DNA of 64,000 nt. Source: an uncultured virus (IMG/VR IMGVR_UViG_3300044655_000681). Taxonomy: Duplodnaviria > Heunggongvirae > Uroviricota > Caudoviricetes. Below, piece by piece: positions 1 through 56,946 of this stretch. Position numbers and translations under genes: made by a program. Where the stretch lies: the IMG/VR virus record IMGVR_UViG_3300044655_000681; one strand, written 5' to 3'. Below the pieces are notes generated by a model. The model worked only from the letters and a program-made list of their open reading frames with translations, had not been told where the DNA came from and did no database searches. Each line of letters starts with the position of its first letter. Positions within the stretch are counted from its first letter, which is position 1.

Positions 1-2
1 AC

Positions 3-131
3 ACACCCGAAATTAAACACATCAACGGCATGATTTATATGAATGACGGTGATTGGGTTGAAAGTTGTAGTGCCCTAGTAGAAGATTATGAAGGACGCTG
101 GGATATTATATATTGGAATGAAATTAAATAG
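3..131 (+). CDS. 3' end of a calcineurin-like metallophosphoesterase (UDP-2,3-diacylglucosamine diphosphatase/LpxH-like or PlcP-like); partial at window edge
   Basis: Frame 3 reads TPEIKHINGMIYMNDGDWVESCSALVEDYEGRWDIIYWNEIK*; Y.NDGDWVESC.ALVE is the C-terminal signature of this family. Confidence 0.75.
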   Translation, partial: TPEIKHINGMIYMNDGDWVESCSALVEDYEGRWDIIYWNEIK

Positions 132-143
132 GAGAGAATGTAA

Positions 144-1571
144 ATGACAATTCAACAGATTAAATCAATGATGTATTATGTAGTAGTAGCATTAGCTGTA
201 TCAATGGCCGGCTTAAAGCAAGCTCACGCAGACAGTACCACAGACATTGTCAATGCTTTAATTATGAAAGGGGTACTAACCGAAGAAGAAGGTGCTCTAA
301 TTAATAAAGGTCGCACTGGCGAAACAGGCGCAGTTAAAAAAGAGAAAGACGCTACAGTCCATGCGGCCAGCAAAATGAATATACGTGGCTACTTACAAAT
401 ACGAAATACTACTATGCTTAGTGGCGACGAAGGAGTTAACCTTTGGTCGGATCGATCTGTAGGTAATAAAAATTCTCTTGCTGACCAAGACAAAAACTTC
501 TTGATCCGACGTGCCCGTGTTATTATATCGGGTTCAGCAGGTGATCGTTTAGATTACTATATTCAACCTGACTTTGCTAGTACAGCAGGTACCACGGGTA
601 ACGTTGCGCAACTACGTGATGCCTATGGTGACGTATATCTAACCAAAGACAAAGTACATCGTGTGCGTGTAGGTCAAAGTAAAGTACCATATGGCTTTGA
701 AAACTTACAGTCTTCGCAAAATCGTTTAGCACTTGATCGTGCTGATGCCTTTAACAGCGCAGTACGTGATGAACGTGATTTAGGTGCGTTCTACTACTAC
801 ACACCAGATAATGTACAAAAGCTGTTTAAAGAAATACAAGATGGTGGTTTAAAACATTCAGGTAACTATGGTATGTTTGGCGTTGGTATATATAACGGCC
901 AGGGTGCTAACCAACAAGAGCGTAACGATAATTATCATACAGTGGCACGTTTTACTTACCCATGGAAAACAGCAAGCGGACAAATATACGAAGCTGGCGT
1001 ACAAGGTTATACAGGCAAGTATGTAAGAACAGGCAGTGCCTACAGAAGAAACATGGGCAACAACGTTTACGCAACTAAAACACCAACATTAGAACCAGGC
1101 AACACAACTGGATTCAAAGACGAACGAGTAGGTGTAAGTTTTATGATGTACCCACAACCGTTTGGTCTACAAGGTGAGTGGAACTGGGGCAAAACTCCTG
1201 GCTTAGATACCTCTGCTAGTACTGATGGTATTATCAAAGAAACTAACCTAAACGGTGGCTACATTCAAACTATGTATAAAATTGATAACTTCAAAGTTGG
1301 CGATACTAATGGTACATTAATTCCGTTTGTTAGATGGCAATACTTTGACGGTGCGTCAAAAGCAGAAACTAACTCACCAATGAACAAGGTAAATGATTGG
1401 GAGATGGGTGCTGAATGGCAAATTGCTCCAGAAGTTGAACTTGTGGCTTACTATCATATGATGAATCGTAGCAATTTAGTAACAGGCGCATCAGCTACTA
1501 CACTAGTAAAACAAGACTATGCTAACTTTAAAGCAGACGCCCTACGTGTTCAACTACAGTATAACTTTTAA
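144..1571 (+). CDS. Phosphate-selective porin (OprO/OprP family)
   Basis: Signal peptide, motifs IRRARV, LRDAY, RVGQSKVPYGFENLQSSQNRLALDR, C-terminal aromatic residue (QLQYNF); AGGAG RBS. Confidence 0.8.
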   Translation: MTIQQIKSMMYYVVVALAVSMAGLKQAHADSTTDIVNALIMKGVLTEEEGALINKGRTGETGAVKKEKDATVHAASKMNIRGYLQIRNTTMLSGDEGVNLWSDRSVGNKNSLADQDKNFLIRRARVIISGSAGDRLDYYIQPDFASTAGTTGNVAQLRDAYGDVYLTKDKVHRVRVGQSKVPYGFENLQSSQNRLALDRADAFNSAVRDERDLGAFYYYTPDNVQKLFKEIQDGGLKHSGNYGMFGVGIYNGQGANQQERNDNYHTVARFTYPWKTASGQIYEAGVQGYTGKYVRTGSAYRRNMGNNVYATKTPTLEPGNTTGFKDERVGVSFMMYPQPFGLQGEWNWGKTPGLDTSASTDGIIKETNLNGGYIQTMYKIDNFKVGDTNGTLIPFVRWQYFDGASKAETNSPMNKVNDWEMGAEWQIAPEVELVAYYHMMNRSNLVTGASATTLVKQDYANFKADALRVQLQYNF

Positions 1572-1798
1572 TCGCAAGAAAATTACTGGTCTTTAATGAT
1601 TTTACGTATGTTATTTAGGCTCTAACGGTGTTACTATATGTATAAGTACTAGTAACAAGCAAACAGTAATGTGAACTTGTTGCGATACTTGAAGTAAAGC
1701 AATCTCAAGTCGGACCTTTGTAGTACAATTTTTGTGTTACATCTCCGATGATCTGATTTGTGATTATTAACGTAATTTACAAATTTAGGAGAAATACT

Positions 1799-2114
1799 AT
1801 GTGGACTAAACCAGCAGCAACTGAAATGCGCTTTGGTTTAACGAAATAGGGACCAAATAAAATTGGGTGAATTGCTGGAACCTCTGAACATTAAGTTGAA
1901 GACAATCAGCAGCCAAGCTAGTTAGGGATAATTAGAAGGTTCAACGACTAATAGCATACCACTAGAACAGTGATGAAGCTAACACGAGCGCCCGACAATA
2001 TAGAAATATATTGATGATATAGTCTGAACAATATAGAAATATATTGATGGTAAGGATAAAGAGCCATACCGATAACACAAAGTCGAGATCACTATGTACG
2101 TAATGAACAAGTAA
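1799..2114 (+). CDS. pqqA: PQQ precursor peptide PqqA, split gene: exon 1 1799-1838, exon 2 2083-2114; spliced product MWTKPAATEMRFGFEITMYVMNK (23 aa)
   Basis: AGGAG RBS at 1787-1791; joining GGT T | TC GAG ATC ACT ATG TAC GTA ATG AAC AAG TAA restores the PqqA pattern MW.KP....R.GFE.TMY with ExxxY. Confidence 0.95.
1839..2082 (+). ncRNA. Group I self-splicing intron (244 nt, no ORF, IA-like) within pqqA
   Basis: P1: exon TTTGGTT (1832-1838) pairs with GACCAAA (1851-1857), U1838.G1851 wobble at the 5' splice site; P3 TTGGGTG 1863-69/CGCCCGA 1989-95; P4 TTGCTG 1872-77/CAGCAG 1907-12; P7 GACTA 1946-50/TAGTC 2020-24; extra stem between P7 and P3; terminal G2082. Confidence 0.93.
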
Positions 2115-2174
2115 TTGTTTGTTTCAACATAGCGTTACAAGAAACTGAACTAGCATCAAAGTTCAAAAAGAAAG

Positions 2175-2203
2175 AAAAAGCCCTATTTCGATAGGGCTTT
2201 TTT
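2175..2203. terminator. Bidirectional intrinsic terminator between pqqA and the HNH gene
   Basis: AAAAAGCCCTAT-TTCG-ATAGGGCTTTTTT; overlaps the HNH stop codon. Confidence 0.85.
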
Positions 2204-2866
2204 GTGGGCAGCGGACATAGTTCTACCTTTAGTAAATCCTGTAGGACACTCACCGGCTCTTACATTTTTAACACCATCAGTCCACCAAGTATAAGTTCCT
2301 TTGCTATAAACTGCCGACATTTTATCTCGATGTTCTTGAGTCCATTCTTTTCCGGGTAATCCTTTTTTAGGACTCGGTTGACCTTTGCGACTATTAGAGA
2401 TATTTTGTTTGGCTTCTTTGCCACGCTTCATACCTATATGAGGATGCTTGCCGTTACTGTACAATGCTTTTTTAGTAGCAGACATTTTAGCCTTTGCTTC
2501 ATCTGAGTGGTGTTTACGATAAAAGGAATTACCTTCGCCTTGTTGTTCTAAACTTCTCTTACTGGCATAATCTCTTCTAACAGTTTCATATAAGCGACTG
2601 TTAAAATATCTATCTTGATAGCCGTTAGCGGATTTCATGAGTATAGCTGCGTGTAACATTTTGTTTCTATCTTGTCCTGTTGTAAACTTTGTTAGTAGGA
2701 TATGGCAAATAAAGTGTTCGCGAGCTGTAAGGGCAACTAAGTTATCAGCATCGTCACTACCGCCTAAACTACGAGGCATAATGTGATGTAGTTCTGTGTA
2801 GCCTTCTAATACTCTATTACGAGCACAGACAATGATGTTGTTGTACCAAGTTTTATATTTGTTCAT
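2183..2866 (-). CDS. Free-standing HNH homing endonuclease with NUMOD3-like DNA-binding repeats
   Basis: YTELHHIMPRSLGGSDDADNLVALTAREHFICHILL HNH motif; HSDEAKAKMS NUMOD3-like motif; start chosen at MNKYK (2866), 5 nt after an ATAAATA late-type promoter. Confidence 0.88.
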   Translation of the reverse strand: MNKYKTWYNNIIVCARNRVLEGYTELHHIMPRSLGGSDDADNLVALTAREHFICHILLTKFTTGQDRNKMLHAAILMKSANGYQDRYFNSRLYETVRRDYASKRSLEQQGEGNSFYRKHHSDEAKAKMSATKKALYSNGKHPHIGMKRGKEAKQNISNSRKGQPSPKKGLPGKEWTQEHRDKMSAVYSKGTYTWWTDGVKNVRAGECPTGFTKGRTMSAAHKKALSK

Positions 2867-3019
2867 AATATTATTTATCACTTTGAAGTCATTATGTATA
2901 AACAAAACTTATTACGGCCATTTAAAAATACAATTAAAAAAACCTATTAATCAGGCTTTTTTTATTAAAAATTTTAATATATAATATATGTACATTAATA
3001 ATTTAATAAGGAGAAATAA

Positions 3020-3586
3020 ATGAGTTTAATCGGAAAACAAGTAGAAGAATTTAAAGCACAAGCATACCGTCAAGGCCAGTTTGTAGAAGTATCAGAGCAA
3101 GACTTAAAAGGTCGTTGGAGCATAGTATTCTTTTATCCAGCAGACTTTACATTTGTCTGCCCAACAGAATTAGCAGACTTACAAGACGCATACGCAAGTG
3201 ACTTCAAAGGCTTGGGCGTTGAAGTATACAGCGTAAGCACAGACACACACTTTGTACACAAAGCATGGGCAGATGCTACAGACACAATCCGTAACATCAC
3301 CTACACAATGATTGGTGATGCTAACCATCAGTTGGCTCGTCAATTTGGTGTGCTAATTGAAAGCGAAGGCTTAGCCGACCGCGGTACGTTTGTTATTGAT
3401 CCAGATGGTGTAGTACAGATCATTGAAATCAATCCAGGTGGCGTGGGTCGTGATGCTAAAGAGTTACTACGTAAAGTTAAAGCGGCAAAGTATACACGTG
3501 AACATCCAGGTGAAGTATGTCCGGCTAAATGGCAAGAAGGAAGTGCTACACTAGCACCAAGTTTGGATCTAGTTGGTAAACTATAA
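3020..3586 (+). CDS. ahpC: Alkyl hydroperoxide reductase C (2-Cys peroxiredoxin)
   Basis: [14 protein letters not shown] and GEVCPAKW motifs, C-terminal SLDLVGK. Confidence 0.95.
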
Positions 3587-3593
3587 TTAAATT

Positions 3594-3625
3594 ACGCCCT
3601 ACCAAAATGCGTAGGGCGTTCTCTT
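3594..3625 (+). terminator. Probable intrinsic terminator after ahpC
   Basis: ACGCCCTAC...GTAGGGCGT stem followed by TCTCTT. Confidence 0.55.
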
Positions 3626-3652
3626 GACTAGAATAAATATTGATAGTATAAT
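3624..3652 (+). promoter_or_regulatory. sigma70-type promoter (leaderless start of cyclase gene)
   Basis: TTGACT-17nt-TATAAT with ATG 7 nt downstream. Confidence 0.75.
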
Positions 3653-3658
3653 AATACT

Positions 3659-5683
3659 ATGATGAAAAATAAACTTAAAAAACTTCTAGTCAGTCCGTGG
3701 ACTGCGTTAATTACATTAGCTGTTATTGTAGTAGTAATCCTACAAGGACCTACGTTTGTAGAGTCAGTTAGACTCAGATACTTTGACACACTCATTGGCG
3801 GCAAGGCTCCTACAGAAAATAATATCTATACTGTAAACATAGATGAAGCTACATTAGACAAGTACGGGCAATGGCCATTTAAGCGTGACGAGTACGCTGA
3901 CCTAATTGATGACCTATACAAACATGGTGCCGGATTAGTTGTTTGGACCGTTATGATGCCGGAAGCAGATCGTCAAGGTGGCGATGCGGCCTTAGCATTA
4001 GAGCTAGAAGATCATCCAGTTATCTTAACTAATATGCCTAGTGAGACTAGTAAAAACATTCCACGTAAACCAGGCAGTGCTGTTATTGGTGACGAGTATA
4101 GCAACACAATTATTACCTATCCGGGTATTATTGCTAATATTCCAGAACTAGAACGTAATGCCGCAGGTGTTGGTATTGCTAATACGTTTCCAGAAGTAGA
4201 TGGGGTTAATCGTCGACTACCGTTGTTTGTTGGTTATGACAATAATGTATACCCAAGTATTCCATTAGAAGTATTACGTGTTATATCGCAGGACTCAACA
4301 TTCCAAGTTAAGCTAAATGAATTTGGTGTAGAGAAAATGCGCATACCAAGTTTCCGTCCTATTAGCACAGACAGTTTGGGTCGCATTTGGGTAGATTGGA
4401 GTCAAAAGTCGCAACAGGTATCAGCAGTCAACTTACCTAAAGACTTTGGCGGTGCTGTGGTTATTGTAGGCCTAAGTGCCGCTGGTTTAGCTAATCCGGT
4501 ACCAACTAGTATTGGTAGTGTATGGCCACAAGACATGCAGGCCGCTGTTATTGGTACACTAGCCAACAACGTAAACATTGAACGTCCATTCTGGGCAGAC
4601 AATGCTGAACTATTAGCACTTATTGTTATCTCACTTATTATTTTAATCTTAAGCCGTTGGGTATATGTTGGCTTAGGTGTAGGTATTGTGTTACTTGCTG
4701 GTATTACTCCGCTAACAATGTATGCGTTTGCGCATTACAACTTCTTGTTTGATGCTATTGTGCCAACAGCTGGTGGTGTACTGGTTATGCTACACGCTTA
4801 TGGTGTTAAGTTTATTAGTGAGTTCTTACAGAAACAACAGATCAAGAAACAATTTGGTAGCTATGTAAGTCCTGTGATTGTTGAACGCTTACAAAAAGAT
4901 CCAAGCCTAATTCGTTTAGGTGGCGAGGAAAAACAACTTACTGCGGTTATGACAGACATGCGTAACTTCACTGGCCTTGGCGAACGGTATGGTGCGGATG
5001 TAGAAGGTTTCACTGCTATCATGAACGCCTATATGACTGCTATCAGTAAACCTGTGTTTGCTAACGATGGTACACTGATTAAGTTCATCGGTGATGCGTC
5101 ATTACATATTCACGGTGCTCCTATTGATGATATTGATCATGCCTACAACGGTGTTAAGACCGCATTAGAAATGATTGAAGCAGTTGACAAGTTTAATGAA
5201 CATTTAGACAGCATTGGCAAACCACATGTAGGTATGGGCTGTGGAGTTAATACAGGCAAGATCCTAGTAGGTAACATTGGTAGTGAAGGCAAGATGGGCT
5301 ACGATGTATTGGGCGATCCTGTTAGTGTAGCGAGTCGTTTAGAAAGTCAAACTAAATCATATGGTGTGTTAATGATCATAGGCCCAGACACTGCTGAATT
5401 AGTTAAAGATCGTTTTGAACTGGTGTGGCTAGACAAGATTGCTGTTAAAGGTAAAGCAATTGGCCTAGACATCTACACTGTGGGCCATACTGTCGCGCAC
5501 ATGCACGAAGAATATCGTAAAGAATATACTCGAGGTGATTGGAAGAAAGCTATCATGTGGGCTAAGAAATTAGTTAACAACGACGAAGTAACAATTAAAC
5601 ATTATTATGAACTAATGATTGAACGTATGGAAGGTGGATTACCAGCAAATTGGGACGGCACTTACCATGCTACGAGCAAGTAG
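3659..5683 (+). CDS. CHASE2-domain class III adenylate/guanylate cyclase, membrane bound
   Basis: CHASE2 motifs (VNIDEATLDKYGQWPF, DGVNRRLPL), three TM helices, cyclase motifs TDMRNFT, KFIGDA, GNIGS..MGYDVLGDPVSVASRLE. Confidence 0.9.
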   Translation: MMKNKLKKLLVSPWTALITLAVIVVVILQGPTFVESVRLRYFDTLIGGKAPTENNIYTVNIDEATLDKYGQWPFKRDEYADLIDDLYKHGAGLVVWTVMMPEADRQGGDAALALELEDHPVILTNMPSETSKNIPRKPGSAVIGDEYSNTIITYPGIIANIPELERNAAGVGIANTFPEVDGVNRRLPLFVGYDNNVYPSIPLEVLRVISQDSTFQVKLNEFGVEKMRIPSFRPISTDSLGRIWVDWSQKSQQVSAVNLPKDFGGAVVIVGLSAAGLANPVPTSIGSVWPQDMQAAVIGTLANNVNIERPFWADNAELLALIVISLIILILSRWVYVGLGVGIVLLAGITPLTMYAFAHYNFLFDAIVPTAGGVLVMLHAYGVKFISEFLQKQQIKKQFGSYVSPVIVERLQKDPSLIRLGGEEKQLTAVMTDMRNFTGLGERYGADVEGFTAIMNAYMTAISKPVFANDGTLIKFIGDASLHIHGAPIDDIDHAYNGVKTALEMIEAVDKFNEHLDSIGKPHVGMGCGVNTGKILVGNIGSEGKMGYDVLGDPVSVASRLESQTKSYGVLMIIGPDTAELVKDRFELVWLDKIAVKGKAIGLDIYTVGHTVAHMHEEYRKEYTRGDWKKAIMWAKKLVNNDEVTIKHYYELMIERMEGGLPANWDGTYHATSK

Positions 5684-6458
5684 TTTTATATTACTGCTAT
5701 TATTTTGCTCCGCAGTGGTAGCAAAACCAATTACAGCAAAATCATTTTTAGTATCTGATACTACTGGTGAAGTTATATTAGAAAAGAATGCTGATCATGT
5801 ACAACCTATCGCTAGCATTACTAAACTAATGACGGTAATGGTTGTACTAAATGCTAATCAAAACTTAGATGAAATGATCACACTTGATCGTAGATTGGTC
5901 GGCAAGTATCATACTCGACTACCTCGTAGTGTTAAACAACTTACTCGTGGTGAGTTGATTGATCTTGCTATTGTTAAGAGTGATAACTTTGCCGCATATA
6001 CGTTAGGCGCAAATTATCCAGGCGGTGTGGCACGATGTATTGCTGAGATGAATCACATTGCGTTTGTACTAGGTATGTCAAGTACAACGTTTGCTGATCC
6101 AACTGGATTAGATCCTAACAATGTCAGTAATGCCCGTGACCTAAGTAAGTTAGTGCTGGCCGCAAACGAATATACAAAGATTACTGAAGCCAGCGGTAAA
6201 CCGCAGGTAAGCATACAAGTTAAACGTCGTTGGTGGCAGTTTGGTAACACTAATCCAATGGTTAGAAATAGCAACGATGTGCGAGTTAGTAAAACAGGTT
6301 ATATTGGTGCTAGCGGTGGTTGTGTGGTTATGTTACTTGATACTGAACTAGGACAGCGTGTAATTGTATTACTTGGTAGTAAAAATACTCGTACTAGATT
6401 TCCAGAAGCACAAAAAATCGCTGTAACAGTAAGCCACAGCGATATTGATGTTGATTAG
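5667..6458 (+). CDS. D-alanyl-D-alanine carboxy/endopeptidase (peptidase S11, PBP7-like)
   Basis: ASITKLMT (SxxK), SDN, KTG motifs; signal peptide from MLRASS. Confidence 0.88.
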   Translation: MLRASSFILLLLFCSAVVAKPITAKSFLVSDTTGEVILEKNADHVQPIASITKLMTVMVVLNANQNLDEMITLDRRLVGKYHTRLPRSVKQLTRGELIDLAIVKSDNFAAYTLGANYPGGVARCIAEMNHIAFVLGMSSTTFADPTGLDPNNVSNARDLSKLVLAANEYTKITEASGKPQVSIQVKRRWWQFGNTNPMVRNSNDVRVSKTGYIGASGGCVVMLLDTELGQRVIVLLGSKNTRTRFPEAQKIAVTVSHSDIDVD

Positions 6459-6781
6459 TCACTACCGCCACTAGCGGCTTTGTCATCTTCTGATTTTTTA
6501 TGAACTGCTTGATTAATTTCTTTCTCAGCTTCAACACGTTCATACTCAATAGTTTTACCACGTAGATGTAACACAGTGTTTACTTTTTGATTTAATCTTA
6601 TCAAATCGTTGTCTAGCATACGTATGCGATCTATCAAGGCAATTAGCACAGTATTTGCGTCTGAAATGACTGGTTTTACCTCTTTTGTGGCCCATTCCCA
6701 CACGTATTTTATAATAAATCCCATACCCACTGCCATAACAATGGGAAAGCCATATTTGTTTACTAAATCTACTACATCCAT
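6455..6781 (-). CDS. Small membrane protein with one TM helix and a coiled coil; paralogue of 8266-8547
   Basis: YGFPIVMA-TM-LIDRIRMLDNDLIRL resembles LGFPVAMA-TM-LDNRVKTMNHDVVRI. Confidence 0.65.
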   Translation of the reverse strand: MDVVDLVNKYGFPIVMAVGMGFIIKYVWEWATKEVKPVISDANTVLIALIDRIRMLDNDLIRLNQKVNTVLHLRGKTIEYERVEAEKEINQAVHKKSEDDKAASGGSD

Positions 6782-7329
6782 AATAAAATCCCTTGTAGCA
6801 TTAAGAATATACCTGCGCCTGCTAGGACAAAACTGCCCCAGAACAATGCCATGCTAACACTTAAGATGCTTGCTGATAATAACACAATTGCTAGTTGATA
6901 TGCTGTACTAGCATAACCTACCCAAGGTAGTTGTTGTTTGTAATGATCACGATCTGCTTCTAATGCCTTGGCCTGAGTAAACAATGCTGGTTTACCTTCT
7001 TCGCCTAGTTCATAACTAGCGGCTTTATCACTAAACTTCTTAGCTTTGGCAGGATCTGTAATTTGCTGTGCGGCTAGTTCATACTGTGTTTGTTTAATAC
7101 TCTTAGCTTGATAGAATGCCCAGATGTCATTGGCTTGAATAGTGTTGTTCATTACTTTACTGTTTAAGCTACCTTGTAGCCACATGTTAAATGCTAACAG
7201 TGCCGCAAAGATGTTGATAACTAAACCAGCTTTTGATTTAATTAACTTTTCAGTTGCTGACTGATCTACTTCTTTACCGTCTTTCTTTTGACGTGTTACC
7301 ATCTTGATTACTGTATCGTGTAATGCCAT
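6772..7329 (-). CDS. DUF4337-like membrane protein
   Basis: ANDIWAFYQAKSIKQ motif; LQ/AIVLLSASIL-type TM segment. Confidence 0.65.
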   Translation of the reverse strand: MALHDTVIKMVTRQKKDGKEVDQSATEKLIKSKAGLVINIFAALLAFNMWLQGSLNSKVMNNTIQANDIWAFYQAKSIKQTQYELAAQQITDPAKAKKFSDKAASYELGEEGKPALFTQAKALEADRDHYKQQLPWVGYASTAYQLAIVLLSASILSVSMALFWGSFVLAGAGIFLMLQGILLWM

Positions 7330-8105
7330 TATCCATTATCTCCATCTGCCCATCGTCTTAAGTTAGCTGCATATCGGGTGATACTGTGATTAACAAAGAA
7401 GTTGATATTTTTACGTTTTAATCCTACTAAGAATCCGCGCCATACGTCTTTGGTCACTTGCCAGAATGTTAGGCTACGCAAGTAACCGTAGTGATTCATA
7501 TAGTACATGCCACCAAAGTGTCTAAACGGCCATAACGGAACACGTGCTACAATATCGGCATTGTTTACAAAACGGAAGTGTAGTACACCTGTTGCTTCGA
7601 TGCCTTTAATATAAGCCTTATTGCCCACTCTAGGACTACCATAGGTAAACAATGCCTGTGGATTGGGGCAAGATTCAGTACGTTGTAAGCGATAAGCTAC
7701 AATAGTTGCCATAGCGGCACCTAGACTATGCCCAGTACACCATACAGTGCGAGTTTTGCCATAGTCATTAGCAAGTTCTTCCAAATCGTGCCAAATATGA
7801 TCTACACTAGTTTTAAATCCTAGGTGATTTTTACCAACACCAGTTGAACTCTTAACTGGTATAGCCGCTAAGTCGCTAACAATATCAGCAAACTCTGTGG
7901 GTTCTGTACCTCGACAAACAATAACTAGGTCATCGTCATTCTTAAGCCAATATGCTTGGCTACCTTCACGATCGATAAACGTGGCATCAAATCCTAATTC
8001 AGCAAAAGCATTAACTCCGTCACGCGGTTCTAAATAAGCAATCTCACTAAACTTAGCCATTAACCAAGCCTGTTCTGGAAATGCTCGCATATTAATAGCT
8101 GACAT
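7329..8105 (-). CDS. Class 3 lipase (alpha/beta hydrolase)
   Basis: CRGTE, TGHSLGAA nucleophile elbow, YGSPRVGN, RFVNNADIVARVP, C-terminal H; start MSAIN overlaps upstream TAA. Confidence 0.9.
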   Translation of the reverse strand: MSAINMRAFPEQAWLMAKFSEIAYLEPRDGVNAFAELGFDATFIDREGSQAYWLKNDDDLVIVCRGTEPTEFADIVSDLAAIPVKSSTGVGKNHLGFKTSVDHIWHDLEELANDYGKTRTVWCTGHSLGAAMATIVAYRLQRTESCPNPQALFTYGSPRVGNKAYIKGIEATGVLHFRFVNNADIVARVPLWPFRHFGGMYYMNHYGYLRSLTFWQVTKDVWRGFLVGLKRKNINFFVNHSITRYAANLRRWADGDNG

Positions 8106-8266
8106 TATACTAGTACCCCTACTAAAAATCCTAAGAACGCACCGAAGAATAGTGCTATAACCATATCTCGATCGTGCCAAATTGGTTGATTTTTCATCCA
8201 TTCATAACTAGCTCTATGATACGGCCACTTAGTTTCGTCCCACTCAACTCTCCAACGATTTTTCAT
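8105..8266 (-). CDS. Small membrane protein, 53 aa (not in ORF track)
   Basis: MKNRWRVEWDETKWPYHRASYEWMKNQPIWHDRDMVIALFFGAFLGFLVGVLV*; TAATG overlaps at both ends. Confidence 0.7.
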   Translation of the reverse strand: MKNRWRVEWDETKWPYHRASYEWMKNQPIWHDRDMVIALFFGAFLGFLVGVLV

Positions 8267-8547
8267 TAATCTCTCCTTGCATCATTTTTACCGTCTGCTC
8301 GAGCAATACGGTCTACATCAGGGCGTAGGCCTAATGCGTTACTAACGATAGTATCAATACGTACCACGTCATGGTTCATTGTTTTTACACGATTGTCTAA
8401 TGCTGTGATGATGCCAGCCATGCCCTTGATTGATCCAAGTACACCGCCTAGTAATAGTTTGATTGTTAGATAAACGAAATAGCCACCAGCTAAGGCCATT
8501 GCTACAGGAAACCCTAGGTCTCCAATGAGTTTGAAAATGTCGCCCAT
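8266..8547 (-). CDS. Small membrane protein; paralogue of 6455-6781
   Basis: AGGAG RBS before MGDIF; TATAAATA late-type promoter upstream (8582-8589, minus strand). Confidence 0.7.
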   Translation of the reverse strand: MGDIFKLIGDLGFPVAMALAGGYFVYLTIKLLLGGVLGSIKGMAGIITALDNRVKTMNHDVVRIDTIVSNALGLRPDVDRIARADGKNDARRD

Positions 8548-8597
8548 ACTTGCTCCTTGAATTTTGTTGTTATTGTACAAGTATTTATAGATTTTGG

Positions 8598-21521: not shown

Positions 21522-22609
21522 TGTTAACCATCAATTACACTGCATCCGCTGTAGAATTTAAATTAAAAGTCTTAGTAGATTTTGTATCTGTAGATTTTAC
21601 ACAAACAGCTACTCGACTCGAAGTACCTTGTGAGCTAACACAAGGCTTCCATCTATTAGAAATTTACCTAGTAGAATACAATGCCGATACACAGATTGAA
21701 TTTACTTCAGCACAATTAAATGGTCAAGACTTTAGGCATACCATTTATGCTATGTTTGATAACAACACACATAGTCAAACAACTAAACTATCGGAGCACA
21801 CTAGAGCAGTAACCTTACCATTTATGAATCCGTTGATTTGGTGGATTACTGCCTGTTTGGAACGAATTCCAAATAAACTGTTTGCTGGTCAGCTATATGA
21901 AACTATGAGTGTGTATTACCCGCAGTCTATTCAACTTAACCACAAGTACCCACAAGAGATTCGTGACTATTTCTTTTACAACAGAGATTTTCATGCGCAT
22001 CTAAAATACAGCGTACAAGACACATACTTCAAACACGAAGTTCCTTATCTACTATTAGGTGATCTAGTTAAGTATGACGAAACAGCCATGGTACAGGAAT
22101 TGTTTAATAACTTAGATTTTCTTAAACAGCAATTAAAAGAGTATTACGGGCAACGGGGATCAGGAAAGCCACTAGGACAAGGTACACAGTTTGTGTCGTT
22201 GTTTGACAACATAAATTCAGATTCCGACTCTTACAACCCTAAATTAGATTTTATGTTAGATCCATTGCAATTTCCTAAGATGTTAGAATTCTTTGAAAAT
22301 CTACCTGTACAAAAAGTATTTCATTCTATGCTAGGATTGCTTGGCCCTGGGCAAGTGATATTACCGCATGTTGACAAATATACCGGCCACGAAACCTTTA
22401 TGGAGAGCTATGGTGGATGTAGTCAAATCTATATTCCACTAAACTTTAAACCTGGCAATTATTTTAAAATGACCAATGTTGGTATTGTGCCCACAGATCA
22501 AGGTGCAGTGTTAATGAATAATCATGATCTAACTCACGCATTAGTAAATGATAGTGACGAATATAGATTCGCTATCTTAATTGTAGGTACAAAGTTGCCC
22601 AATGCTTAA
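21521..22609 (+). CDS. Protein with C-terminal Asp/Asn beta-hydroxylase-like 2OG-Fe(II) domain (paralogue 2)
   Basis: LGPGQVILPHVD ... YIPLNF ... HALVNDSDEYR; collinear with the upstream gene. Confidence 0.65.
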   Translation: MLTINYTASAVEFKLKVLVDFVSVDFTQTATRLEVPCELTQGFHLLEIYLVEYNADTQIEFTSAQLNGQDFRHTIYAMFDNNTHSQTTKLSEHTRAVTLPFMNPLIWWITACLERIPNKLFAGQLYETMSVYYPQSIQLNHKYPQEIRDYFFYNRDFHAHLKYSVQDTYFKHEVPYLLLGDLVKYDETAMVQELFNNLDFLKQQLKEYYGQRGSGKPLGQGTQFVSLFDNINSDSDSYNPKLDFMLDPLQFPKMLEFFENLPVQKVFHSMLGLLGPGQVILPHVDKYTGHETFMESYGGCSQIYIPLNFKPGNYFKMTNVGIVPTDQGAVLMNNHDLTHALVNDSDEYRFAILIVGTKLPNA

Positions 22610-23924
22610 AGATAATTTTTGTTCTAGCCCTTGGTTTCATATTAGACTCAATCCGTCTGGTAACTACAGACCTTGTCGCTGGATATCATTTCAAAAAGAC
22701 AGTGACAATGAATATCACATGTCTAACACATCCATTATGGACTATATGAATTCTACCATGATGAAAGATGTGCGTACACAGATGTTAGCTGGTGAGAAAT
22801 TATCAATGTGCGAGTGGTGCCACTACGATGATAGTGTTAATAAAGTCAGCGGTAGAAAAATACAACTGCTAAAAAGTGCAGTAAACACCAATAACTTTGA
22901 CAAAACATTTTGTTCAAGCCCACACTACAAATTGTTTAACTACAGTCACGAACATCGGGGCGAAACTAACTGCCATCCAGTAGATCTGCAAATTGATCTT
23001 GGCAACACCTGTAATGGTGCCTGCATAATGTGTACACCAACCTACAGTAGTAAGCTAGCCAATGATTATGTTGAGTTGAATAAACTTGAACCTAAACTAT
23101 TTGACATCTTTCCTTATCGCAAGAATTGGACCGACGATCCTGCACTAGTTGATAAGTTTGTTAGTGAACTAGCTGAACTGCCTAATATTAAGTATATTCA
23201 TTTCTTGGGTGGTGAAACACTTTATCTAAAGAGTTTTTACACTATCTGCAATCGTTTAATTGACCTTGGTATTGCCAAAGAAATCAGTATAGGAACTACT
23301 ACCAACTGTTCGGTTTATAATAAAGAGCTAGAGCATATTATTAAAAACTTTAAACATGTACACCTAGGACTAAGTGTAGAAACATTTCATAGCTTAAATG
23401 ACTACATTAGATGGCCAAGCAACATTAACCAAGTGACTAACCACATACAGAAATTTATCGAATTACGAAAAGAAAATAGTATGCATCTTAGTCTGCGTAT
23501 TACTCCGAACATCTTTTCTATTTTTTATTTAGATACAATCTTTGAGTTTATGCTACAAAATAGGATTACTGCGGAAAGTTGTACAGTACTGCGAGAGCCG
23601 CCGTGCCTACGTGCAGAGCTATTACCTCCAGAGTTAATTAAAATTTGCGCAGATAAACTCAATCAACTAATTGTAAAATATAATCTAAGCCCAAATGCCG
23701 CAACAGTAATCAATCGACGACATAACGATTTCACTGAAGACGTGATAACAGATACAATATTTGAATTTAAGTATCTCTTTGAAAACATGCAGCCTCCAGT
23801 AGATGTAGATGAACAGCGCCAAGATCTAGTTAAATTTATTCAAGCGTTTGAACAAGTACACAACAATAATATTTTAGATTACCTACCAGAATATGAAGAA
23901 TTTTTACGAAGCTACGGTTACTAA
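22602..23924 (+). CDS. Radical SAM protein with N-terminal twitch-like auxiliary domain
   Basis: FCSSPW...RPC...CEWC N-terminal Cys set; CNGACIMC (CX3CX2C); FLGGE. Confidence 0.85.
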   Translation: MLKDNFCSSPWFHIRLNPSGNYRPCRWISFQKDSDNEYHMSNTSIMDYMNSTMMKDVRTQMLAGEKLSMCEWCHYDDSVNKVSGRKIQLLKSAVNTNNFDKTFCSSPHYKLFNYSHEHRGETNCHPVDLQIDLGNTCNGACIMCTPTYSSKLANDYVELNKLEPKLFDIFPYRKNWTDDPALVDKFVSELAELPNIKYIHFLGGETLYLKSFYTICNRLIDLGIAKEISIGTTTNCSVYNKELEHIIKNFKHVHLGLSVETFHSLNDYIRWPSNINQVTNHIQKFIELRKENSMHLSLRITPNIFSIFYLDTIFEFMLQNRITAESCTVLREPPCLRAELLPPELIKICADKLNQLIVKYNLSPNAATVINRRHNDFTEDVITDTIFEFKYLFENMQPPVDVDEQRQDLVKFIQAFEQVHNNNILDYLPEYEEFLRSYGY

Positions 23925-25299: not shown

Positions 25300-25533
25300 A
25301 TGAAAGTAAGCGTTTTATTAGCAGTATTATTAGCAGTTGCTGGCGTAGCATCAGCTGATGAAGTTAAACAGAACACTCAACATCAACTATCAAAACGTCC
25401 TTATGCGGCTCCGGTTGTAGATAAGGAAACATTTGATGGTGCGGTTGTTGATAAAAAAGAAGTAGAGCAACCTAAGCAGTTAAATTTACACATGTTAGGT
25501 CGTCGAGCATATTCAGAAAAGACGGCCGACTAA
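25300..25533 (+). CDS. Small secreted protein with internal repeat
   Basis: AGGAG RBS; signal peptide ending ASA; HQLSKRPY and HMLGRRAY repeat. Confidence 0.75.
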   Translation: MKVSVLLAVLLAVAGVASADEVKQNTQHQLSKRPYAAPVVDKETFDGAVVDKKEVEQPKQLNLHMLGRRAYSEKTAD

Positions 25534-25534
25534 A

Positions 25535-25880
25535 GAAATTGTTGTAGCCGAAAGGCAAAGTTGTAAAGTAAGGCATGTTGGACGGCGGTTCGATTCCGCC
25601 CAGGTCCACCATAAGCATATTCGACCCTATTCCGGATTGGGTGACATGTAACAGAGTGTGCTTTTGATGGGCCTGACCAGGTTTTCGACAGCGTGAGATA
25701 GGATAACAACTCAACACGTGGGGTCACGTAAAATACAAAAATCGTAAATGCAACAGCAAATACAAAAGACGTAGTTAAAGTGTCAATGGGTCGTGGCTTC
25801 CGCTTCGGTTCACGCACTGAAGCTTTAGCAGCCTAAGAAACTGCTCGTCCGGGGTAGCTATACCTTGTTACCAAAAATAG
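25535..25880 (+). ncRNA. ssrA: Circularly permuted (two-piece) tmRNA: acceptor piece ends at CCA 25611, intervening segment 25612-25668, coding piece starts 25669; outer ends approximate
   Basis: T-arm GGCGG-TTCGATT-CCGCC then CAGGTCC-A-CCA; downstream GGGCCTG pairs with CAGGTCC giving G3.U70; TTCGAC-AGCGTG pairs with CATGTTG-GAC; tag frame 25750-25836 ATANTKDVVKVSMGRGFRFGSRTEALAA*. Confidence 0.93.
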
Positions 25881-25881
25881 T

Positions 25882-25908
25882 AGGAAGCACCTTCGGGTGC
25901 TTTCTTTT
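25882..25908 (+). terminator. Intrinsic terminator after tmRNA
   Basis: AGGAAGCACC-TTCG-GGTGCTTTCTTTT. Confidence 0.88.
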
Positions 25909-26017
25909 GTCTAGCATTTCTAGCAGTATATTCCACACAAGATAGTTTGTGTGGCACGAGTACTATGCTATAATATTTGCGTGGCACAAATAATAAAATA
26001 TGCCATACAAATTTTGG

Positions 26018-26817: not shown

Positions 26818-27111
26818 ATGAAGTTAAATCCAATCCACGACCGCGTAGTCGTCAAACGTATCGATGCCGATACACAAACAGCAGGTGGCATCATCATTCC
26901 AGATAATGTTGCTGAAAAACCAGATCAAGGTATTGTCCTAGCAGTAGGCCAGGGTCGCCGTACAGAAGATGGCACATTAATTCCTATGACGTTGAAAGAA
27001 AACGATCGGGTGTTATTTGGTAAACATTCTGGTCAAGCAGTTAAGATTGAGGGCGAAGAAGTACTCGTTCTTAAAGAAGATGAAATTTTTGCAGTTATTG
27101 AGGAGAACTAA
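26818..27111 (+). CDS. groES: Co-chaperonin GroES
   Basis: [33 protein letters not shown]. Confidence 0.96.
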
Positions 27112-28737
<1,626 letters not shown>

Positions 28738-54747: not shown

Positions 54748-55036
54748 AAGCATTTATCTAATAGCAAAATACGCAGGTGTTCCAAAAGATCCAACACAAA
54801 CTAGTAAACCAGGATACATGAAAAATCCTGAGAATATTCATTATGATGAACAAGTATACATTGCTCGTGGCCTAAGGCAAAAAGACCTTCAAAACCAAGT
54901 AATTTTGAACCTAACTGAAGAGAAAATCATTAAAAACATCTTCAATCCTGGCAAATCTTTTGAAGAAATCTTTACTCACTACTATGACAGCTATGCTGAC
55001 TATATTGACGATTGTGTTAATCAACTAAATTCTTAG
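54737..55036 (+). CDS. Hypothetical protein
   Basis: AAGGA RBS, TTG start. Confidence 0.65.
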   Translation: MANKSIYLIAKYAGVPKDPTQTSKPGYMKNPENIHYDEQVYIARGLRQKDLQNQVILNLTEEKIIKNIFNPGKSFEEIFTHYYDSYADYIDDCVNQLNS

Positions 55037-56069
55037 TTAGAGAATTATTGATTAATGGTTGCTCTTTAACGCCACAGTGACTATTACAACGCAATAGTCT
55101 TCCATCTTTATAACTAGTCTTAGCCCAAGAGTCTTCTACCTTACTAAACCACTCCATACATTCACGTAAAGGGTGGTTTAACGCATTTATTTTTTGATCT
55201 GCTATCAATACTTTTACCTGCTCATTACCCCAAGAAGTTGCGGGCCCGTAAGTACTAGAATACATACCTAAATAACAACACGGGCTTATATCACCGTTAG
55301 AAGACACATAAATTGATCCTTCATTTATAATCTGACAGACTATTTTTTCGTGTACAGGTTCTTGATAGTTTGGACCTGGGAAATTAACAATAACATCTTC
55401 TAATTCTTTATGATATGTTTTATATTTTCCTACGTCTCTAGTACCAATATCATGTGAATAGTCACCATTACGATCGTATACAGTGCCTTGATTCCTACTA
55501 TGATCAACTAGTTCAAACTCAGCGAATCCCAAATCTACCGACATTTGCCTACATGCGTCAATCTGATGTTGATTATGATCAAATTTAATCATTTTCCATC
55601 TAGCACAACCACCTGCGGCTATATATGTTTTTGCATTGTCTATTACTCGTTGCCAATCAGTGTCTATTCGATACAGATGATGTGTATCTGCTAGACCATC
55701 TAGACAAAAGTGAATTTCTATATTCTTAGTTGCTCCTAATTGATGCCAGAAGTCTTTAGTCCTGGCACTACCGTTGGTGCTTATAAATACTTTTAATTTT
55801 GTATTGTTTGTTTGGAAATATTTGATAATTTCTAGAGCATCTGACGCTAGCATAAAATCACCAAAATTACCATTTAGGTAGATATCTCGCAATCGACTTA
55901 CAAAACTAACGTCAAACATAGTTTTAATATTATCAAGAGAAAGAGAAGTTACTGGGTAACCTAAATTCATCGGGTACCCATGAAAGTTTCTAGGGCACAG
56001 AGGGCACCTAGCATTACAATTTGAAGAGAGCTCTAAATGTAGAGCCCTCACGTCCTCATATTTAATCAT
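55017..56069 (-). CDS. Radical SAM protein with C-terminal SPASM/twitch-like Cys cluster
   Basis: CNARCPLC; NGNFGD; STNG; C...IYVSSNGDISPCC...CNSHC. Confidence 0.88.
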   Translation of the reverse strand: MIKYEDVRALHLELSSNCNARCPLCPRNFHGYPMNLGYPVTSLSLDNIKTMFDVSFVSRLRDIYLNGNFGDFMLASDALEIIKYFQTNNTKLKVFISTNGSARTKDFWHQLGATKNIEIHFCLDGLADTHHLYRIDTDWQRVIDNAKTYIAAGGCARWKMIKFDHNQHQIDACRQMSVDLGFAEFELVDHSRNQGTVYDRNGDYSHDIGTRDVGKYKTYHKELEDVIVNFPGPNYQEPVHEKIVCQIINEGSIYVSSNGDISPCCYLGMYSSTYGPATSWGNEQVKVLIADQKINALNHPLRECMEWFSKVEDSWAKTSYKDGRLLRCNSHCGVKEQPLINNSLTKNLVD

Positions 56070-56085
56070 GCAATTATTTATTGCA

Positions 56086-56829
56086 TTAAATTTCCTTGTA
56101 AATTTTTAACACCTCCGCAACCGCCGGATGGCGCATAATGTCTCTACTCGCAAATTCTACACCGGCTACGTACTTACTGTGTTGGTACTGTTCAACAAGA
56201 CCCTTAAAGTCTAGTAGACCGTTGTCAAGTTCTTTACGGTCAGCCTGACGTGTATCACCTGTTACCACTATTTTGGATCCATCACCGAGTCGCGTTAGGA
56301 GCATCTTCATCTGTCCAGGAGTGGCGTTTTGCATTTCATCTGCTACTATCCAACTATCCTTAAAAGTGCGACCTCTCATATATGCCAGTGGAGCTATCTC
56401 TATTTGTTGTTCTTCTAGCATACGGGTAATTTCTTTTGGACTCCAGTACTCTGCCATAACATCAAACAGAGGTCTAGTCCACGGTTCCATCTTAGCGTTA
56501 ATATCACCTGGTAGGAAACCATGCTTCTCATCATCCACCCCTACCGCTGGACGAGTTAGTACAATCTTCTTCACCTCCCCTTCTTTATAGGCTTTAATAC
56601 CGGCTAACACGGCTAACATGGTTTTACCCGTACCGGCTGGACCTGTGGCAAAAACAATGCTTTTGTCTTCGTTGGTCAATAAACTAATATATTCTTCTTG
56701 ATTTATACTTTTAGGAATCAGTTGGACTGATTTACGTTGCTGGACATAATTATTAAAACTTAATACGTTCTTATCTTCTGTTGCGAATGCTACTGCGTTG
56801 TTACTGCGTGATCTGCGATGTCTTGACAA
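56086..56829 (-). CDS. phoH: PhoH family ATPase
   Basis: GPAGTGKT, LTRPAV, GFLPG, APLAYMRGRTF, DEMQN, MKMLLTRLG, GDTRQAD; TTG start after AAGGAG. Confidence 0.95.
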   Translation of the reverse strand: MSRHRRSRSNNAVAFATEDKNVLSFNNYVQQRKSVQLIPKSINQEEYISLLTNEDKSIVFATGPAGTGKTMLAVLAGIKAYKEGEVKKIVLTRPAVGVDDEKHGFLPGDINAKMEPWTRPLFDVMAEYWSPKEITRMLEEQQIEIAPLAYMRGRTFKDSWIVADEMQNATPGQMKMLLTRLGDGSKIVVTGDTRQADRKELDNGLLDFKGLVEQYQHSKYVAGVEFASRDIMRHPAVAEVLKIYKEI

Positions 56830-56946
56830 TTGAAGCTCCTTTGAAGTGTTGTACCGATTAAAGGCATCATGTACACAGATATTTAAGAGCAATTTTTTGG
56901 AGGAAAGTGAGTAGTTATATTTTTAAGATCTAGACTAAGTATTAAG

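Follow-up and report, generated by a model that had tools for sequence, protein, structure and literature searches.

The window analysed here is a stretch of 64,000 nucleotides (nt) from an uncultured Caudoviricetes virus (IMG/VR record IMGVR_UViG_3300044655_000681), and near its start lies a pqqA gene (for the peptide precursor of the cofactor pyrroloquinoline quinone, PQQ) that is interrupted by a group I intron and followed by a gene for a free-standing HNH homing endonuclease (Table 1). Joined by their coordinates, the two pqqA exons amount to 72 nt, i.e., 23 codons and a stop, and the intron sits between the first and second bases of codon 14. At 244 nt it is 3.4 times as long as the gene it splits (244/72), a ratio given in the original prediction for this locus that we recomputed; the prediction's coordinates for exons and insert were exact when re-read from the sequence. 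Without splicing, the pqqA frame ends after 16 residues, ahead of both PQQ-forming residues, as had also been claimed. The intron has a G+C content of 36.5% compared with 39.2% for the window, and its plus strand holds a single open reading frame (ORF) of 20 codons, initiated by TTG (1863-1925). Exon 1 is 90-92% identical to intron-less alleles of related phages. A promoter scan of 1500-3100 returned six sites where 6.7 would be expected, none of them upstream of pqqA. The HNH gene, which the original prediction did not mention, is convergent with pqqA and lies 68 nt past its stop codon.

The spliced product is PqqA. An intron-less natural allele (L088, 3001-3069) encodes the same 23 residues as the window's gene spliced in silico, and the profile test was run through this allele and not through an artificially joined sequence. 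Its peptide scored 42.1 bits against Pfam PF08042 (PqqA; cut-off 21.1) and 40.2 bits against the NCBIfam equivalog TIGR02107 (cut-off 20), so that both models support the original assignment of the gene. The Glu and Tyr of the PqqA motif ExxxY are the residues cross-linked by PqqE/PqqD, according to the accessible text of PMC7678222 (its references 50-51). Both lie in exon 2 and are present in the product only once the intron is removed; a usable precursor can therefore come only from spliced RNA.

The insert was identified by the Rfam covariance model RF00028 (Intron_gpI). The match spans the model's full length (positions 1-253) and covers 1829-2046 on the plus strand; its 84.5 bits exceed the gathering score of 50, with an E value of 4.6e-20 for the 64-kb window as a whole. 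This was the sole intron match in the window, and the homologous intron of L085 reaches 70 bits with the same model. In P1, the exon strand TTTGGTT pairs with the internal guide sequence GACCAAA, and in the Rfam alignment the sixth base of the exon strand, U1838, faces G1851. P2 is deleted, and an insertion of about 36 nt separates the 5' strand of P7 from the 3' strand of P3. Thermodynamic folding of 1829-2090 gave a z score of -2.29, with a centroid that recovers P3, P4, P5a, P6a, P7.1, P8, P9 and P9.1. The hallmarks named in the original prediction (a 7-bp P1 with U.G at the splice site, P3, P4, P7 and a terminal G) are all in place, and its list is extended here by P5, P6, P7.1, P8, P9 and P9.1. 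The nearest core matches are introns of Bacillus phages: that of Belinda, located in the gap of a split DNA polymerase gene, is 68.6% identical over 1844-2077, and three further Bacillus phages match the core at 80-82% over about 1903-2007. Together with the P7.1 hairpin, these relatives suggest that the pqqA intron belongs to subgroup IA. A 17-nt word from its P5/P4 core occurs in 34 IMG/VR stretches (L132-L165), only two of which (L138, L158) contain pqqA, the others being related introns. The intron would presumably splice itself without the help of proteins.

Table 1. Features of the split pqqA locus and its HNH gene, with the helices of the intron (window coordinates).
Feature	Position	Strand	Remarks
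Shine-Dalgarno sequence AGGAG	1787-1791	+	7 nt ahead of the ATG, read from the sequence
pqqA exon 1	1799-1838	+	codons 1-13 and base 1 of codon 14
Group I intron without ORF	1839-2082	+	244 nt, last base G2082
In-frame stop TAG	1847-1849	+	9 nt into the intron, P1 loop
P1	1832-1838 (exon)/1851-1857 (guide)	+	7 bp; U1838.G1851 at the 5' splice site
P3	1863-1869/1989-1995	+	
P4	1873-1878/1906-1911	+	
P5	1883-1885/1900-1902	+	
P5a	1887-1889/1895-1897	+	
P6	1912-1913/1939-1940	+	
P6a	1918-1924/1929-1935	+	
P7	1944,1946-1950/2020-2025	+	
P7.1	1952-1955/1978-1981 and 1960-1963/1969-1972	+	
P8	1996-2002/2007-2013	+	
P9	2029-2035/2040-2046	+	
P9.1	2049-2055/2064-2070	+	
pqqA exon 2	2083-2114	+	remainder of codon 14 to TAA (2112-2114); contains the ExxxY Glu and Tyr
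Hairpin rich in G+C, T runs on both strands	2175-2202		between the convergent pqqA and HNH genes; terminator scan (-), T run on + read from the sequence
Free-standing HNH + NUMOD3 homing endonuclease gene	2183-2905	-	240 amino acids (aa) from the first possible start

Relatives of the intron were retrieved with a pattern in which exon 1 is joined to the first four intron bases, a search that reaches only alleles with an AATEM-type exon 1 and an intron beginning TAAC. Four viral and six metagenome loci matched; two pairs represent the same contigs, leaving eight distinct contigs besides the window. In all ten matches the intron occupies the same position, measures 240-246 nt, ends in G and, when removed, restores a 23-codon PqqA frame. 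We aligned seven distinct variants, which share 82-93% identity with the window across the gene, and scored them against a structure based partly on the Rfam alignment and partly on inspection by eye. Standard pairs fill 95.0% of 519 cells, compared with 26.5-42.0% after the 3' partners had been shifted by one to three columns. Eleven pairs have changed on both sides, against a mean of 5.9 in shuffled alignments, and none of 500 shuffles reached 11. These double changes are located in P1, P6a, P7.1, P8 and P9; in P1 of L290, for instance, a synonymous exon change from GGT to GGA is offset by a guide change from A to U, turning a U-A pair into A-U. The splice-site U.G and the full P1 pairing are kept in all seven variants. 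Across them, P3, P4, P6a, P7, P7.1 and P9 are 100% paired, P8 95.7% and P5 88.1%. P7 and P4 are invariant among the variants, so P7 contributes no covariation information.

Evidence for splicing comes from environmental RNA. For region 1-6000 of the window, we compared two metatranscriptome runs (X23 and X24, from one sample of one study) with two lake DNA runs (X1 and X2, containing 0.89 and 0.86 of the region's sequence words). The junction foreseen in the original prediction, which leads from 1838 to 2083 and skips 244 nt with the ends TA..AG, occurs in contigs of X23 (depth 16.4) and X24 (depth 25.4). It was not found in the DNA of X1 or X2, where contigs continue without a break across 1741-2947 and 1741-2983. 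The RNA assemblies further hold a 303-nt piece corresponding exactly to 1810-2112 and another that begins exactly at 2083, limits that would result from a k=31 assembly graph in which spliced and unspliced molecules occur together. None of the 250 uninterrupted alleles fetched contains the window's 60-nt junction, the closest differing at 6 of the 60 positions. Variant intron-less joints with replaced letters were seen once in DNA run X2 and once in RNA run X23, indicating that the method is able to detect intron-less alleles. Contig depth is no measure of expression or of splicing efficiency, and uncovered RNA bins (e.g., 1601-1800) were left uninterpreted.

The protein encoded downstream of pqqA contains PF01844 and PF07460 and matches phrog_655 ('homing endonuclease') with an E value of 2e-47. 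Among solved structures, its sole match was to the HNH motif in a maturase from a group II intron (E 2.6e-4), which does not inform the target. The hairpin between the two convergent genes is likely a two-way terminator common to both. An HNH gene is present at most about 130 nt downstream of pqqA in nine of nine intron-bearing contigs. Intron-less alleles with an HNH gene within 1 kb downstream numbered, among the matches listed, four of 71 viral and none of 72 bacterial ones (4/143), a count restricted to alleles followed by at least 1 kb of sequence and made after removal of duplicates (the near-duplicates L005 and L006 count once). Two types of HNH protein occur at the site, with only the catalytic motif in common. 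The type found in the window (about 240 aa, convergent) recurs in L294, L295 and L298, where the homologues are 73-74% identical; the other, of about 159 aa, is co-directional with pqqA in L289, L290, L291 and L292 and convergent in L293.

Homology among the intron-bearing loci stops at the cassette. For L294, L295 and L298 it covers 1690-2902 of the window, meaning that the window-type intron and the window-type HNH gene form one continuous homology block in three contigs that are otherwise unrelated. In L289-L292, homology to the window is confined to about 380 nt comprising gene and intron. The flanks are jumbo-phage-like or T4-like, with RegA, the gp44/62 clamp loader and gp45 in L290 and L291. 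Within the window's own phage group, a single locus between a porin gene and ahpC exists in several states: intron-less without HNH (L001), intron-less with an exon-2 sequence TLYVMNR and one or the other type of HNH gene (L005/L006, L007, L011), and with both intron and HNH gene (the window). In the porin-ahpC locus of L002-L004 and L008-L010, no pqqA was detected. All four HNH-bearing intron-less alleles (L005, L007, L011, L034) read TLYVMNR in exon 2 and not TMYVMNK. Of seven TLYVMNR alleles fetched, five are accompanied by an HNH gene and L056 is not, whereas the flanking sequence of L113 is too short to decide. TLYVMNR may be a nuclease-resistant target variant; its presence in all four HNH-bearing intron-less alleles is an indirect hint, being the pattern expected under target-site immunity if the enzyme recognises pqqA itself.

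From the linkage to HNH genes and the end of homology at the cassette borders, the best reading is a selfish mobile element in two halves, intron and endonuclease, and we consider it probable that the locus represents a group I intron, itself without an ORF, in phage pqqA that moves by collaborative homing with the free-standing HNH endonuclease. The intron folds on the transcript, where the TTTGGTT/GACCAAA pairing sets the 5' splice site at the U.G wobble, and its removal at the terminal G restores the reading frame with the cross-linked Glu and Tyr. As the intron splices, its cost would be low. The HNH enzyme would cut or nick the intron-less pqqA of a co-infecting phage near the insertion site, and recombinational repair would then copy intron, endonuclease gene and flanking pqqA into the cut genome. 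A carrier would escape cutting itself, either because the intron splits the site or by way of an altered exon 2.

Several points weigh against this reading. The loci are phylogenetically related, and the counts of 9/9 and 4/143 are therefore not independent events. Since the two HNH types are alike only in their catalytic motif, a common target is not required, and homing, the activity of the endonuclease and its target are all what we infer from sequence. A candidate P10 (1846-1850 with 2083-2087, 5 bp) is weak, with three of five pairs in the window and 65.6% overall, and pairs well in the L289 and L290 lineages. The RNA evidence consists of assembled contigs, not reads, from one sample; the joint carries the flag 'between: not known', which strictly leaves room for a transcribed intron-less twin allele in the sample. 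The path containing the intron is deeper (44.3 and 65.1) than the joint, an excess that may reflect incomplete splicing or depth added by excised intron or some DNA. Finally, no pqqB-E genes were seen in the 64-kb window, so that use of the peptide depends on the host.

Alternatively, the HNH gene could be a bystander that spreads alone into the gap after pqqA, the intron being inherited or moving independently, e.g., by reverse splicing. The four intron-less loci with an HNH gene at the same place fit such an account, as do the two unrelated HNH types in both orientations at the site, and free-standing endonucleases are described as common between conserved phage genes in the accessible parts of reviews. 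We regard it as unlikely in view of the contrast between nine of nine intron-bearing contigs and 4/143 intron-less alleles, the same changed exon 2 in all four of the latter, and the homology block that unites intron and HNH gene (1690-2902) in otherwise unrelated contigs.

An extension of collaborative homing, which we put forward as a quite unlikely variant, is that the HNH enzymes recognise pqqA itself and cut the pqqA of rivals and host alike during infection, leaving the phage copy, shielded by the intron or by TLYVMNR, as the sole intact template for the PQQ precursor. The cassette would then be both weapon and parasite, and the 72-nt gene a landing pad by which DNA moves between unrelated (jumbo and T4-like) phages. 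This view is based on the near identity of pqqA in rival phages and in several chromosomal copies of Methylophilaceae.

According to the original prediction, splicing gates the production of PqqA, i.e., conditional splicing would set the supply of phage peptide. The greater depth of the intron-containing path in the RNA runs is compatible with such a gate, yet splicing efficiency is not measurable from contig depths. Also compatible with a gate is the in-frame stop, which lies 9 nt into the intron, at codon 17 in the P1 loop, in seven of seven variants, whereas early in-frame stops are usual in phage introns and thought to keep ribosomes off the folding ribozyme (accessible text of PMC3984707). 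That source also describes one bacterial group I intron acting as a metabolite-controlled switch; in the pqqA intron, however, every helix is a standard group I element, and there is no aptamer-like extra domain that might serve as a sensor. The intron is moreover polymorphic among near-identical phages, with close relatives of the same phage and 119 of 120 viral loci listed lacking it, and a homing endonuclease gene stands beside it in 9/9 loci. We therefore do not maintain the gate, which appears very unlikely. Another account, in which the interrupted gene is dead and the RNA joint was supplied by an allele lacking the intron, is scarcely credible: intron-less alleles do exist in the DNA and RNA of these lakes and the RNA is from a single sample, but the exact joint is missing from two DNA runs with 86-89% of the region's words, the fetched alleles come no closer than 6 mismatches in 60, and 7/7 variants, unlike a dead copy, keep the exons in frame and the ribozyme pairings intact via compensatory changes.

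The window is part of a jumbo phage. A PHROG scan of 84 ORFs identified virion structural proteins, tail fibres, endolysins, holin, spanin, DNA ligase, clamp loader, PhoH and MazG, next to host-like genes for porin O/P, AhpC, a CHASE2 cyclase, GroES/GroEL and ClpP. The porin upstream of pqqA recurs at 88-96% identity in 11 IMG/VR loci, on contigs of up to 218,902 bp, and phages related at this level carry intron-less pqqA at the same place. The PHROGs across the window and these related contigs bear out the original view that pqqA is phage-encoded. A blastn search of window positions 1-8000 against INPHARED found no related phage, only ahpC-like and intron-core matches, none covering 80% of the query. 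The Staphylococcus and Listeria phages among the matches listed align to ahpC and not to the intron, and organism counts were left unused for this reason.

With a degenerate pattern for the first 10 pqqA codons, at least 120 IMG/VR contigs were retrieved; 119 of the 120 viral loci listed encode an uninterrupted 23-codon pqqA and one (L085) an interrupted gene. The same pattern matched at least 124 stretches of bacterial contigs (one genome per species), and the titles listed are mostly Methylophilaceae (Methylophilus, Methylotenera, Methylopumilus, Methylobacillus, OM43), with a few metagenome-assembled genomes (MAGs) labelled otherwise. Several bacterial genomes among the matches listed have three to four pqqA copies. 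The 129 bacterial alleles among these matches comprise 126 intact 23-codon genes, two cut by the end of the stretch and one with an early stop, and none (0/129) contains an intron. One of the two cut alleles is L227 (3001-3041), where a 3.8-kb MAG contig labelled Methylopumilus includes only the first 41 nt of pqqA and breaks off a single base beyond the insertion site; an intron polymorphism may have interrupted the assembly at this point, but one base is too little to tell. As the pqqA matches are mostly from Methylophilaceae, the host probably belongs to the freshwater members of this family, in agreement with the lake-water origin of the runs.

One PqqA molecule is consumed per PQQ, which makes a supply of extra substrate for host PqqB-E plausible, and the phage peptide would be used by these host enzymes. 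Support for this role is limited to the conservation of the gene in many phages and its multiple host copies. That phage PqqA feeds host methanol oxidation is plausible and not new: the accessible text of a study of Lake Baikal reports PqqA in a Methylophilaceae phage population and proposes a boost of methanol oxidation (Coutinho 2020, Microbiome 8:163, PMC7678222). Phage pqqA is likewise already published as an auxiliary gene in that study, and it is common. A 2026 reservoir study reportedly provides a further match on phage PqqA.

Several neighbouring genes merit mention. Directly upstream of pqqA, 144-1571 (+) encodes a phosphate-selective porin O/P (PF07396, E 4e-37; without a PHROG match), which may be an auxiliary gene for phosphate uptake; PhoH is also encoded, at 56086-56892. 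Following the pqqA cassette, 3020-8201 contains a series of host-like genes, for an AhpC peroxiredoxin, a CHASE2 adenylate/guanylate cyclase (phrog_35576, 677 bits, full length), a D-Ala-D-Ala carboxypeptidase, a DUF4337 protein and a class 3 lipase. The family phrog_18771, of unknown function, is represented by two small paralogues encoded 1.5 kb apart at 6455-6781 (-) and 8266-8580 (-), and L293 has a phrog_18771 homologue near its intron-bearing pqqA. The segment 19819-24276 (+) encodes a ClpP-like protease, then two proteins without annotation (each about 360 aa) and a radical-SAM protein with a twitch domain (NF033640, 252.7 bits), and could be a maturation cluster of unknown product. Two radical-SAM genes (22602-23924 and 55017-56069) were considered as a phage PqqE and rejected, since neither reached a PqqE model; the best profile matches were to the twitch-domain family and to sub-threshold maturases. 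A phage transfer-messenger RNA (tmRNA) lies at 25519-25927 (+), with 88.3 bits for Rfam beta_tmRNA (gathering score 84) and 88.1 bits for tmRNA_permuted; ARAGORN also calls it permuted, and its tag peptide is unusually long and ends in ALAA. GroES and GroEL (phrog_3188; phrog_5725, 585 bits) are encoded just past it at 26818-28737 (+).

Collaborative homing has been described for cyanophage psbA and for T-even phages (Zeng, Bonocora & Shub 2009; Bonocora & Shub 2009; as given in the accessible text of PMC3984707). The pqqA cassette resembles the psbA intron and F-CphI of cyanophage S-PM2, as far as these are described there, in its adjacent free-standing endonuclease and in the polymorphism of the intron among related phages. 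Unlike psbA, the gene interrupted here is a 72-nt precursor gene of a ribosomally synthesized and post-translationally modified peptide (RiPP) and is shorter than the intron; unlike the EndoVII-like F-CphI, the enzymes are HNH/NUMOD3 proteins of two unrelated lineages in both orientations, with cleavage predicted. Phage T4 and its relatives have introns in td, nrdB and nrdD and show trans-homing with mobE / I-TevIII (accessible text of PMC2790892 and PMC2988022), and the likeness extends to group I introns in protein genes of T4-like phages, to a free-standing HNH enzyme that mobilises a neighbouring intron and to the T4-like flanks of intron-bearing L290 and L291. The present cassette differs in its target gene, in an intron without an ORF and in its occurrence also in a non-T4 jumbo phage. 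With the DNA polymerase introns of Herelleviridae Bacillus phages (e.g., Belinda), the pqqA intron shares the P7.1 hairpin, which separates P7 from the 3' strand of P3. Those introns reside in large replication genes, often with HNH inside the intron, whereas the pqqA intron has neither an ORF nor P2 and its HNH gene lies outside. The SPO1-type intron is of class IA2 and encodes I-HmuI. The Baikal Methylophilaceae phages are similar in carrying pqqA in freshwater methylotroph phages, with a proposed role in boosting PQQ-dependent methanol oxidation; in contrast to the findings here, the accessible text of PMC7678222 mentions no intron, and the scale here is at least 120 IMG/VR contigs.

In the literature outside subscription journals, we found, among the matches listed, no published intron in pqqA or in a RiPP precursor gene, consistent with the original statement that none had been described. 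Phage group I introns paired with free-standing endonucleases in auxiliary genes are a known kind of element; what is new here is the host gene, together with the extreme ratio of sizes. Among the host genes of phage group I introns, this 23-codon RiPP precursor, outsized by the ribozyme that splits it, is both new and extreme. It also provides the second natural example, following cyanophage psbA, in which an ORF-less intron and a free-standing endonuclease have colonised an auxiliary metabolic gene. At such loci, ORF callers report a 16-residue stub or nothing, and surveys of viral auxiliary genes therefore count too few intron-bearing phage pqqA copies. Target choice and immunity are directly testable in this system, which offers several independent lineages, nucleases of two types, an exon-2 variant that appears to confer immunity and environmental RNA evidence for splicing. 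Of the 120 viral loci listed, 119 carry pqqA uninterrupted, in support of the view that precursor supply is important during infection.

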